DNA of 16,410 nucleotides from a virus (IMGVR_UViG_2778261139_000010); one strand, 5' to 3'. Shown: positions 1,794 to 4,829, counted from the first letter of the stretch. Translations and numbers: made by a program. Notes: generated from the sequence alone by a model not told the origin.

Positions 1794-1973
1794 AAAGACT
1801 GGCGGCACACAGCCACCACCAATCCATTATTGACCGATACCGGGATCTCGGTATCGGGAATAAACGCCATAATACTGAGGTATAACCATGATGAAATATA
1901 CGCCCGTACAGGGGCGGGGATTCGTTCGCCCTGGTGAATCTGAAAAGCCATGCTATAGGGTATTTTCAGGCAT

Positions 1974-2007
1974 AAAAAAAGCGGTCCCGATATGGAACCG
2001 CCTTTCT
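1974..2007 (-). terminator. Intrinsic terminator for the minus-strand small-gene transcript
   Basis: Minus strand reads GCGGTTCC-atatc-GGGACCGC (one mismatch in stem) followed by TTTTTTT; lies about 65 nt downstream of the minus-strand ORF ending at 2070. Confidence 0.5.
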
Positions 2008-2069
2008 GAACAATTAACCCGCTGCGCCGTATGTGTCAACAATCATAAGCCCGAACATGATAACCGTGA

Positions 2070-2273
2070 TCAGGCTGGTGGGCAATTACCTTGCTTGTTG
2101 GGGCCGTATTGTGCTGCCATTTTCATCCGTTCAGAACGTGAATATTTTTTTAGAAACTCATCAAGGACAAAAGCGCATGGAGCGAATCTTTCTGATTCAT
2201 GCTCGAGCGCCATATTTTCGTGCTCTCTGTTCGTTTTTTGCGATGGTGTATTGGTTGATTCTTTATTGGTCAT
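2070..2273 (-). CDS. Hypothetical small protein downstream of RHH-1
   Basis: 67 aa; ATG ACC AA start exactly 57 nt after the RHH-1 stop, same arrangement as 2787..3014 after RHH-2. Weak SD. No recognisable family. Confidence 0.4.
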   Translation of the reverse strand: MTNKESTNTPSQKTNREHENMALEHESERFAPCAFVLDEFLKKYSRSERMKMAAQYGPNKQGNCPPA

Positions 2274-2281
2274 TGTGTGTA

Positions 2282-2364
2282 CCTGTAAAGCAATGCGCCG
2301 TAGTACCTCACGCCACGGCGCTGATAGTAATTATTCTGATTCTTTGGCCTTGCGGCGCTGGCGG
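2282..2364. repeat. Copy 1 of an 83-nt near-identical repeat spanning the RHH-1 3' end and the downstream intergenic hairpin
   Basis: 3 mismatches in 83 nt versus 3023..3105, while the rest of the two RHH genes has diverged. Confidence 0.85.
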
Positions 2365-2510
2365 CGTTTGATCTCGCCTTTTGCTGCCGTAACTAGAAAT
2401 CCGGCGGTACTTTCGCCAGGTTCTTTAAGTTGCTCAATATCGGTCATTACCTCATGCGGGATTCTGACCGTTGTCATTTGTGATTTTGCGTTCTTTGCAC
2501 CTGTTGCCAT
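2331..2510 (-). CDS. Ribbon-helix-helix-like DNA-binding protein (RHH-1), candidate repressor
   Basis: 59 aa MATGAKNAKSQMTTVRIPHEVMTDIEQLKEPGESTAGFLVTAAKGEIKRRQRRKAKESE. Strong SD AGGAG 8 nt upstream. Beta-strand (TVRIP), helix, G-E-S turn, helix pattern. Paralog of 3072..3251. Confidence 0.65.
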   Translation of the reverse strand: MATGAKNAKSQMTTVRIPHEVMTDIEQLKEPGESTAGFLVTAAKGEIKRRQRRKAKESE

Positions 2511-2530
2511 TTCTGGTTCTCCTGATAATC

Positions 2531-2623
2531 GGTGTATTTCAGTATACGCAAAAAAAAAGATAAAAAAAGTCTTGCGGTGTATTTCACCTGAATGTAGATT
2601 TAAAAATAAAGGTGAAATACACC
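2531..2623. promoter_or_regulatory. Module-1 operator cluster: GGTGTATTTCA (2531), GGTGTATTTCACC (2576) and its exact inverse GGTGAAATACACC (2611), bracketing a sigma70-like rightward promoter (TTGCGG 2572..2577, 17-bp spacer, TAGATT 2595..2600)
   Basis: Exact repeats and inverted repeats read from the sequence. Promoter assignment is by eye from hexamer match and spacing. Confidence 0.55.
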
Positions 2624-2786
2624 CAAAACAACAACGCCCCGCAGTGATGGGAACACATACGGGGCGTCTAACCAAACCATTAATTGAGGTAACGATTATG
2701 GCTATAAAAGAGCATAGCTTACTCTTTATACACACACAAACGCCCCGGAAACGGAATAATCCGTTTCATAGTTCGGTTTTGTGTAC

Positions 2787-3014
2787 TCATCCTGGCGGGC
2801 GATTCTTACGGGACTTTAGCCGCCGTGGGCAGCTTGCTAAAAATGCCTCCAACGCGAATAGTCCAGGTTTCATTTCTATCGGTATTAGTTGGATATTCAG
2901 AGGATTAGCCAGTTCGGCTTCAAGGCGAGCACAGGTTTCTAACTGCCTTTGCCGAATGATTTCATCTTCTTGCGTCTGCGTGTCTTGTATTGGTGATAGT
3001 GTGTTGTTGGTCAT
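2787..3014 (-). CDS. Hypothetical small protein downstream of RHH-2
   Basis: 75 aa; ATG ACC AA start 57 nt after the RHH-2 stop. Central region looks coiled-coil-like (EDEIIRQRQLETCARLEAELA). No recognisable family. Confidence 0.4.
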   Translation of the reverse strand: MTNNTLSPIQDTQTQEDEIIRQRQLETCARLEAELANPLNIQLIPIEMKPGLFALEAFLASCPRRLKSRKNRPPG

Positions 3015-3022
3015 GATACTGC

Positions 3023-3105
3023 CCTGTAAAGCAATGCGCCGTAGTACCTCACACCACGGCGCTGATAGTGATTATTCTGATTCTTTGGCCTTGCGACGCT
3101 GGCGG
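3023..3105. repeat. Copy 2 of the 83-nt near-identical repeat (RHH-2 3' end plus intergenic hairpin)
   Basis: See 2282..2364. Confidence 0.85.
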
Positions 3106-3251
3106 TATTCAACTTCCCGCTTTAATGCAGCTGTAACAAACTGCCCTGTACTTTCGCCGGGCATTTTTACCGCCTCAACATTGTTCATAACTTCATGTGG
3201 AACCCTTGCCGCAACTGTTTGTGATTTTGCGTTTACTGCTTTTGTCGCCAT
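3072..3251 (-). CDS. Ribbon-helix-helix-like DNA-binding protein (RHH-2), candidate repressor of the rightward early operon
   Basis: 59 aa MATKAVNAKSQTVAARVPHEVMNNVEAVKMPGESTGQFVTAALKREVEYRQRRKAKESE. Strong SD GAGGGGGG upstream. Below the 60-aa cutoff of the ORF track, found by reverse-complementing the repeat. Confidence 0.65.
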   Translation of the reverse strand: MATKAVNAKSQTVAARVPHEVMNNVEAVKMPGESTGQFVTAALKREVEYRQRRKAKESE

Positions 3252-3301
3252 GTTGAGCCCCCCTCATAAAAAACAAATGCAGTATGCAGGAAAAAAAATA
3301 A

Positions 3302-3354
3302 GTGTTCAACACTTGACGTGTTTAACACCTCGATTTAAATTGGTGTTCAACACC
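3302..3354. promoter_or_regulatory. Module-2 operator cluster: palindromes GTGTTCAACAC (3302), GTGTTTAACAC (3318), GGTGTTCAACACC (3342), overlapping a sigma70-like rightward promoter (TTGACG 3313..3318, 17-bp spacer, TAAATT 3336..3341)
   Basis: Three copies of a self-complementary 11-13 bp site positioned at -35, in the spacer and just after -10. Classical repressor/operator geometry. Confidence 0.6.
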
Positions 3355-3443
3355 TTATTTAGGCAAGGTGTAGAAACGACGAAACCCCGCACTGTAGGAG
3401 CAGTAACGGGGCTTCTAACCAACAACGTAAACGAGGAGCCGTT

Positions 3444-3641
3444 ATGGTTGCCGTAAATCATATACCACACCTTGTACACACACAAACTGCCTTTGTGTGG
3501 CGTTTTCTGGCCCTGAGTGCCGGAGAATCTCAAATCATCCACGTAACCGCCTGGACGGAACGCGAAGCGCGTAGCCGTTGCCCGTCCGGTTGTGTTGCTG
3601 TATTTGCCGCCCGTATTCGTCAGGAGGTGCGCCATGATTAA
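3444..3641 (+). CDS. Small protein resembling Icd-like (host cell-division inhibitor-like) proteins of P1/P4-type elements; first gene of the early operon
   Basis: 65 aa, SD GAGGA 6 nt upstream. FVWRFLAL...TEREAR...VFAAR pattern recalled from Icd-like annotations; family call is from memory. Confidence 0.45.
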   Translation: MVAVNHIPHLVHTQTAFVWRFLALSAGESQIIHVTAWTEREARSRCPSGCVAVFAARIRQEVRHD

Positions 3642-4529: not shown

Positions 4530-4829
4530 ATGAAACTTAAATATTCTGGCTTAACTGCCAGTGGCAACACTCACCCTAAATTTACGCGCGGTGATATTTA
4601 CCGCGACCAGTACGGCGGCACGGTAATGATTAAGGGCGTGGCGGGACGGTGCGTAACTTACCGCCGTGAAGGTTACGAATATGATTGCGTGATGCCTGTT
4701 TATCAGTTCCGGCGTGATTTTTCTCTGGTACAGACCGCGCCGCATAACGTGCCCACCAGCAGGGAGAAAGCACGCGCCAATATTCAGAAGATGAAAAACA
4801 TGATTAACGGATTCAGGGGCAAGAAATGA
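4530..4829 (+). CDS. Hypothetical protein (early operon, immediately upstream of rep)
   Basis: 99 aa; GGAGA SD; stop overlaps the rep start (ATGA). Confidence 0.55.
   Translation: MKLKYSGLTASGNTHPKFTRGDIYRDQYGGTVMIKGVAGRCVTYRREGYEYDCVMPVYQFRRDFSLVQTAPHNVPTSREKARANIQKMKNMINGFRGKK

Follow-up and report, generated by a model that had tools for sequence, protein, structure and literature searches.

A hairpin leader of small-gene cassettes between alpA and the Icd-like gene in Escherichia coli phage satellites

Results

Gene organization between alpA and the Icd-like gene

The stretch of DNA analysed here (16,410 nucleotides of IMGVR_UViG_2778261139_000010, hereafter the window) is a capsid-forming PICI (cf-PICI) of E. 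coli, a phage satellite which carries int, alpA and genes encoding a RepA helicase, a capsid, a portal and a terminase. A 1.9-kb query matched the island adjoining roxA in E. coli O22:H8 RM10809-3 with 99.7% identity over 91%. The genes of that island are ordered int, alpA, two YlcI/YnfO genes, ash/Icd-like, RepA helicase and SSB, followed by PerC, capsid, protease, portal, connectors, HNH and terminase, and the cf-PICI paper gives EcCIEDL933 as the prototype of the capsid-forming PICI architecture.

The minus strand carries two modules of ~741 nt, A and B, in the interval bounded by alpA and the Icd-like gene. Each contains a regulator gene, the element studied here and a small ORF, all on the minus strand and divergent from a rightward promoter. 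Regulator A (2331-2510, minus strand) is an RHH-like protein of 59 aa belonging to the YlcI/YnfO family (NCBIfam NF041551, E = 4e-17). Regulator B (3072-3251, minus strand), assigned by family match, also has 59 aa and is 61% identical to regulator A. Substitutions in both regulator genes cluster at codon position 3. Since a PDB sequence search with the regulator gave no relative, the assignment of the RHH (ribbon-helix-helix) fold depends solely on weak profile matches to proteins of the Arc-like repressor type. The small ORF of module A (2070-2273, minus strand) encodes 67 aa of the FAPCAF type and that of module B (2787-3014, minus strand) encodes 75 aa of the ..FALEAF..NRPPG type. According to a family alignment, the two are distant relatives within a single small-protein family that conserves a P..F.L..F core; the family comprises E. 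coli hypothetical proteins only, without a Pfam domain. The minus-strand operon is closed on the A side by a canonical intrinsic terminator read from the sequence (1971-2003, minus strand; GGCGGUUCC..GGGACCGC followed by U7), a stretch also covered by a chance Rfam match to Atu_C8. The first gene of the rightward operon encodes a 65-aa Icd-like (P4 Kil-like) protein (3444-3641, plus strand; NCBIfam NF033153, E = 6e-18). The regulatory module between alpA and the Kil/Icd-like gene is undescribed, and so is the element, though the latter is of a familiar kind; searches of the literature for YlcI/YnfO function and for the element sequence found no match.

Repeat detection found a different set of operator-like repeats in each module. 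Module A shows CGGTGTATTTCA twice and a perfect 14-bp inverted repeat, GGTGTATTTCACCT / AGGTGAAATACACC, at 2530-2623, while the repeats of module B, AAATAAGTGTTCAACAC / AAATTGGTGTTCAACAC at 3296-3353, overlap a promoter-like site reported by the promoter scan at 3313-3341 (plus strand). These separate sets are consistent with allele-specific operators, as would be expected of two immunity specificities in tandem. The set of module B (3296-3353) comprises two GTGTTCAACAC palindromes. A conserved hairpin, CCCCG..N17-18..CGGGG followed by CUUCUAACCAA, is found at 2627-2654 and 3385-3411 (plus strand), in the leaders of the truncated copy of the Icd/Kil-like gene and of the gene itself; P4 has CI/seqA at this position, and the Rfam C4/isrK models gave no match to it. 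A near-perfect 24-bp palindrome at 1834-1857, whose arms CCGATACCGGGA/TCTCGGTATCGG are 92% complementary, is located in the gap that separates alpA from the start of the eta-like ORF described below, and is a candidate regulatory site for an upstream 'late' promoter.

The window also shows 15 Chi sequences (GCTGGTGG) in 16.4 kb, nine on the plus and six on the minus strand, when 0.47 are expected from shuffles; examples are located at 885, 2074, 5737, 5965, 6703 and 9260 on the plus strand and at 4753, 5215 and 7037 on the minus strand. One of them (2074-2081) lies over the last codons of the 67-aa ORF, and the Chi complement CCCACCAGCC is conserved near the end of the small ORF in relatives. 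These sites may protect the linear DNA of the satellite from RecBCD.

Anatomy of the element and its hairpin

In pairwise alignment, positions 2282-2364 (copy A) and 3023-3105 (copy B) are identical at 80 of 83 nt, with three mismatches (96%). Outside the element, identity between the modules ranges from 41% in the downstream ORFs through 49% in the promoter/operator region and 61% in the remainder of the regulator genes to 66% in the rightward gene's leader. The near-identity of two 83-nt segments amid diverged coding sequence, from which the original prediction started, is therefore confirmed (96% vs 61% in the rest of the RHH genes), and independent repeat detection recovered the same pair as 2263-2387 and 3004-3128, 741 nt apart. 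Both copies read on the minus strand, where each comprises the last 10 codons and the stop of its regulator gene and then 49 nt of spacer. The element does cover the last codons, as had been proposed, but not the entire 57-nt spacer: 49 of these nt lie inside it, and the 8 nt directly before the ATG are unlike between copies A and B.

The spacer forms a minus-strand hairpin with a longer stem than the seven base pairs originally proposed. Hairpin A (2295-2321), GCGCCGUGG-CGUGAGGUA-CUACGGCGC, has 9 bp, and hairpin B (3036-3062) has an 11-bp stem with a 5-nt loop. A covariance model built from relatives has exactly two matches in the window, both on the minus strand (2268-2337 with 90.5 bits and 3009-3078 with 93.3 bits), and the next best hit reaches 13.8 bits. 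The 81-nt contexts of the hairpins fold with -21.8 (A) and -24.3 (B) kcal/mol (z = -2.6 and -2.8), values as good being reached by one of 200 shuffles. Each stem is followed by the 13 nt AUUGCUUUACAGG, with a weak Shine-Dalgarno AGG, and by the 8 unlike nt, which lead to the AUG of the 67-aa ORF in leader A (2274-2294, minus strand) and of the 75-aa ORF in leader B (3015-3035, minus strand). The repeated unit is thus ~10 nt, a GC-rich 9-11-bp stem-loop, AUUGCUUUACAGG, 8 nt and AUG.

Among 195 copies of the unit, 192 have the end of the stem 21 nt from the ATG and no indels. Hairpin dG averages -14 kcal/mol, and the 9-11-bp stems have values from -13 to -19. Conservation stops abruptly on both sides, at the stop codon of the upstream gene and ~8 nt short of the ATG downstream. 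A GC-rich stem of 9-11 bp with a short loop is what is expected of an intrinsic terminator, and a U-rich tail (at least 5 U in the 8 nt 3' of the stem) is present in 132 of the 195 copies (68%). The tail AUUGCUUUA agrees with a lenient U-tract rule and the variants AUUGCUAUG, ACAGGGUUA and CAACCAUAG do not; of the two copies in the window, only hairpin B was terminator-like in the terminator scan. Because 32% of copies lack a U-rich tail, termination cannot be a universal role of the element.

Distribution of the element and its association with the small ORF

Of 5426 complete E. coli genomes, 1579 (~29%) gave blastn matches to the 83-nt query, at 2068 places in all, with a median of one and a maximum of six places per element-bearing genome. 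In nearly all cases the match sits where a regulator gene of YlcI/YnfO or Arc-like type ends in a satellite island; a dispersed REP/BIME palindrome was discarded on the basis of these numbers and this near confinement. All matches in the plasmid set belong to Escherichia, E. albertii among them, and the phage collection searched with the element gave zero matches. The original prediction was to be abandoned if the spacer proved private to one genome; it is instead widespread in E. coli and occurs in E. albertii. Regulator homologs of Edwardsiella, Pectobacterium, Xenorhabdus and Klebsiella do not have the element, and the YlcI/YnfO genes of Xenorhabdus and Klebsiella show a textbook terminator hairpin (CCCUCUUAAAGAGGG and a U run) soon after the stop.

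When loci were retrieved through the small-protein family, the hairpin leader was found directly upstream of the small ORF in 80 out of 80. The genes upstream of it at these loci are of at least four unrelated or divergent kinds: several YlcI/YnfO alleles, a longer YlcI type, a type ending '..REELQRRKAKESE' and Arc-like repressors. The O157 island of EcCIEDL933 type shows an identical non-coding element that begins 3-4 nt past the end of the Arc-like gene. Island L207 contains three successive units of hairpin, leader and small ORF, the first of them in a 5' UTR, and in L017 a second copy of the element lies behind another small ORF. YlcI/YnfO genes without a small ORF behind them do not have the element. 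Since the element occurs after diverse upstream genes and is absent where the small ORF is absent, it is the leader of a small-ORF cassette and not a 3' feature of RHH genes, where it had first been placed; it tracks the downstream small ORF, and stands behind an Arc-like gene and behind other small ORFs as well. The element is the fixed leader of an orphan small-protein family.

In islands L069, L075, L042 and L074-L079 the regulator stop is directly followed by the CCCACCAGC.. region, which elsewhere stands behind the small ORF (comparison islands L205, L206 and L122). From these islands it follows that hairpin, leader and small ORF behave as an insertion/deletion unit, found in 0-3 copies.

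Mosaicism and the tandem arrangement

The regulator types (YlcI-A, YlcI-B, YlcI-x and Arc) were found in nearly all combinations with the small-ORF types, which makes the element a mosaic joint. Tail and hairpin types are likewise reassorted with respect to the regulators' N-terminal parts, and the leader is ~98% identical between cassettes whose proteins are just 29% identical. Double modules follow a constant order, with a PPG-type ORF always in the icd-proximal unit and an MTNKE/FAPC-type ORF always in the alpA-proximal unit, and comprise six different regulator pairs. The tandem of the window is a recurrent architecture, not a recent duplication.

At the tandem junction (~2748-2786), the 3' flank of the 75-aa ORF abuts a 5' remnant of an Icd-like gene that belongs to module A. 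This remnant (2699-2786, plus strand) contains ~16 codons of the Icd-like gene, MAIKEHSLLFIHTQT.., fused to that flank; module A drives only this remnant. Since the element is internal to each module and the junction lies away from it, the element did not generate the tandem, contrary to the suggestion that it served as the recombination substrate. Its being a tandem-duplication junction was ruled out by the junction position together with the recurrence of the double module. Intragenomic gene conversion is likewise not needed to explain the identity of copies A and B, because the same hairpin variants join the same two ORF types in islands from which a single module was recovered.

RNA structure, strand and candidate functions

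Structure statistics were calculated on 26-30 distinct cores, all from Escherichia. Stem cells are paired in 91% of cases, compared with 24-56% in slid registers, and the consensus fold consists of this hairpin and nothing else. In 26 of 30 cores the sense hairpin is more stable than its antisense counterpart, with means of -13.0 and -9.0 kcal/mol, respectively. G.U cells number 40 against seven A.C cells; counted by distinct pair types, the values are 8 and 5 (p = 0.29). A common variant, GCGCCAUAG...GCAGGCGC, retains just a 5-bp outer stem and a small inner helix. Covariation falls short of significance: only one double compensatory change was seen, 49-300 of 500 shuffles reach the observed values, and diversity is low. 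Support for an RNA structure is therefore moderate, and fold, pairing and the comparison of sense and antisense stability make the minus-strand RNA hairpin of the original prediction the better-supported strand.

The strand comparison bears on another reading, in which the inverted repeat GCGCCGT-N13-ACGGCGC would be bound as duplex DNA, for example by AlpA or the integrase, or would be a recombination site. Both copies in the window show a perfect 7-bp palindrome, and the sequence is constant across regulator alleles, as a site for a conserved factor would be. However, an ancestral G.U and most variants break the palindrome and keep sense-strand RNA pairing, the repeat is unrelated to the allele-specific operator repeats, it is part of a transcription unit, always equally far from a start codon, and it has no att or attC feature; we consider a DNA site quite improbable. 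An integron attC site was also set aside: no GTTRRRY box is visible, and the integrase of the island is annotated as a generic tyrosine recombinase beside alpA.

A translational control structure had been proposed; in the simple form of occlusion it is not supported, as no conserved pairing hides the ribosome-binding site. Sequestration of the Shine-Dalgarno sequence was rejected in view of the consensus fold, which is the hairpin alone; a helix over ACAGGG is peculiar to copy B. A CsrA site, with GGA in the loop and the Shine-Dalgarno sequence, was sought by eye and rejected, the motif being present in some variants only. Neither scan nor inspection by eye found a promoter within the leader or a promoter for an antisense sRNA. 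Searches with the RNA families of Rfam 15, C4/isrK included, gave no match above the gathering threshold in the window and none over the element at E <= 10. Duplex energies of the hairpin, on either strand, with icd leader RNAs fell within the shuffled range (lowest z = -1.6), and the complement of the loop has no other occurrence in the window.

The loop UGAGG is conserved as strongly as the stem, and UGAGG(U/A)A is at least 90% conserved. Together with the constant 21-nt distance to the AUG, the arrays in which one hairpin precedes each cistron and the arginine-rich stretches of most small-protein family members, this would agree with an RNA operator, a boxB-like hairpin bound by the Arg-rich N-terminus of the small protein (..ARKRRRRK..) or by the RRQRRKAKE tail of the regulator. 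Its outcome would be translational autoregulation, or antitermination across the hairpin array. We regard this as unlikely: neither small ORF of the window has an arginine-rich N-terminus, Arc-like regulators have no basic tail although the hairpin behind them is unchanged, one array copy shows a different loop, and domain searches detected no RNA-binding domain.

A further explanation assigns the element no dedicated function and takes it for a decayed terminator and ribosome-binding leader, conserved through recent spread of the cassette and homologous exchange or gene conversion. The sampled diversity is low and restricted to Escherichia, so recent spread and recombination could mimic purifying selection; besides the 26-30 distinct cores and the lack of significant covariation, recombination is rampant, and tail and hairpin types are shuffled against regulator N-terminal parts. 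Yet the leader stays ~98% identical where the proteins have fallen to 29%, the conservation edges match functional landmarks in many independent combinations, and 192 of 195 copies have no indels. The chance that the element lacks a function of its own is, in our judgement, small.

An eta-like open frame antisense to both modules

The plus strand shows an eta-like open frame of 522 codons (1888-3456), antisense to both modules, their promoters and both elements. It contains no stop, compared with 28 and 49 in the other two frames, and none of 20,000 shuffles of the non-coding parts of the minus strand kept it open. The frame is open over 191-765 codons in 23 of 23 relatives tested, and in L122 (2506-3450, minus strand) and L207 (334-2124, minus strand) it is joined in frame to the Icd-like domain.

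Conservation of the spacer could then reflect the opposite strand, as coding sequence or as a transcript element of the eta-like ORF, and PGAP does place Icd-like or BRO-N pseudogenes over the element. Where the eta-like ORF alone could code, however, substitutions at the three codon positions number 28/28/30, 101/90/85 and 57/57/59 and show no periodicity, whereas the controls give 11/72/27 for alpA and 63/77/128 for the RHH genes; in the spacers, position 3 is the least variable. Antisense coding as the cause of conservation was ruled out by this absent periodicity. An open frame merely forbids stops and leaves 96% identity unexplained, and with the antisense hairpin the weaker one in 26 of 30 cores, we hold constraint from the opposite strand to be highly improbable.

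In P4, termination is prevented by translation of a long ORF, eta, driven by a late promoter further upstream, and the C-terminal nested product of eta is Kil (PMC10111431). By this analogy the eta-like frame looks like an instance of the P4 eta/kil logic, in which translation, not the product, would matter. The region resembles the P4 immunity region (PMC10111431) in its succession of alpA, long eta-like ORF, Kil/Icd-like 65-aa gene and replication genes. It differs from P4 in that the Rfam C4/isrK (CI RNA) models give no match, in the protein repressor cassettes located antisense inside the eta-like frame, and in a hairpin that, unlike P4 seqA/seqC, has no complementarity to icd leaders. That an array of boxB-like stem-loops, antisense within a translated-but-noncoding eta-like frame, might be a post-transcriptional switch (attenuation/antitermination or translational autoregulation) for a satellite leaving repression seems to us very doubtful.

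Discussion

We tentatively favor, at a little less than an even chance, the view that the element serves small-gene cassettes of the regulatory ('Bro') zone of E. coli PICIs and cf-PICIs as a portable leader, and acts in cis as an intercistronic mRNA stem-loop. Anatomy, distribution, small-ORF linkage and combinatorial mosaicism are observed, while action at the RNA level and the direction of that action are inferred.

As a portable intercistronic leader, the element would operate in a transcript shared by a repressor-type gene (either a YlcI/YnfO allele or one of the Arc-like type) and one to three tiny orphan genes. The stem-loop would form in this mRNA and punctuate the polycistronic transcript. 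Toward the upstream gene it may be a leaky terminator and a protector of the 3' end of the regulator message; for the terminator analogy speak the Xenorhabdus and Klebsiella terminators at a comparable position, the U-rich tails of 68% of copies and the terminator-like copy B. Toward the downstream gene it may provide a fixed, context-independent 5' edge for a weak ribosome-binding site. This would yield an excess of regulator and keep the small protein at a fixed low level irrespective of the upstream regulator allele. Because no other sequence between its highly variable neighbours is conserved, the 60-80-nt element probably also provides the site of crossover when regulators and small genes are shuffled by homologous exchange. 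A loop as conserved as the stem stands against the mRNA stem-loop reading, since it is not required of a plain stabiliser.

Several known systems share parts of this arrangement. The immI region of phage P22 contains arc, an intercistronic region and ant, with the sar antisense RNA. As in P22, a ribbon-helix-helix repressor comes first and expression of the second gene would be set via a short intercistronic region; here, however, the second gene encodes a 57-75-aa orphan protein and not Ant, no antisense sRNA promoter was found by scan, and the antisense hairpin has no U tract. Intercistronic stem-loops for differential expression include REP in malE-malF, the early RNase III sites of T7 and leaky terminators. 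The element resembles them as a GC-rich hairpin just past the upstream stop in a polycistronic operon, repeated before successive cistrons. It differs from REP in not being a dispersed repeat, with a median of one copy in the genomes that have any, from a classical RNase III site in its stem of 9-11 bp, which is too short, and from intercistronic stem-loops in general in its fixed distance to the next AUG and its conserved loop.

The PeSL 'mobile regulatory cassettes' of T4-type phages carry an early promoter. Like PeSL, the element is a short conserved stem-loop unit beside variable small ORFs that would offer homology for modular shuffling, but no promoter was detected in it and its carrier is a satellite, not a T4-type phage. 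With lambda nutL boxB and the N leader it shares a hairpin in the leader of a small protein with an arginine-rich motif; neither its stem nor its loop matches boxB, a convincing boxA is missing, and the arginine-rich motif is not universal. On the features tested, the element is outside the P22 arc-ant, PeSL and intercistronic stabiliser/attenuator classes.

PICIs and cf-PICIs are common in E. coli, O157:H7 included, and to our knowledge their silencing is known in outline only, through AlpA induction. In the module described here, a single invariant hairpin leader connects small orphan genes with repressor-plus-operator units that can be swapped. A hairpin that sets the ratio of repressor to small protein would offer a way to test satellite immunity and induction; one that is mainly a recombination joint would explain the exchange of immunity specificities between islands. 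Either way, it is a compact portable leader of ~50 nt, with hairpin and ribosome-binding site, that tolerates any upstream gene.
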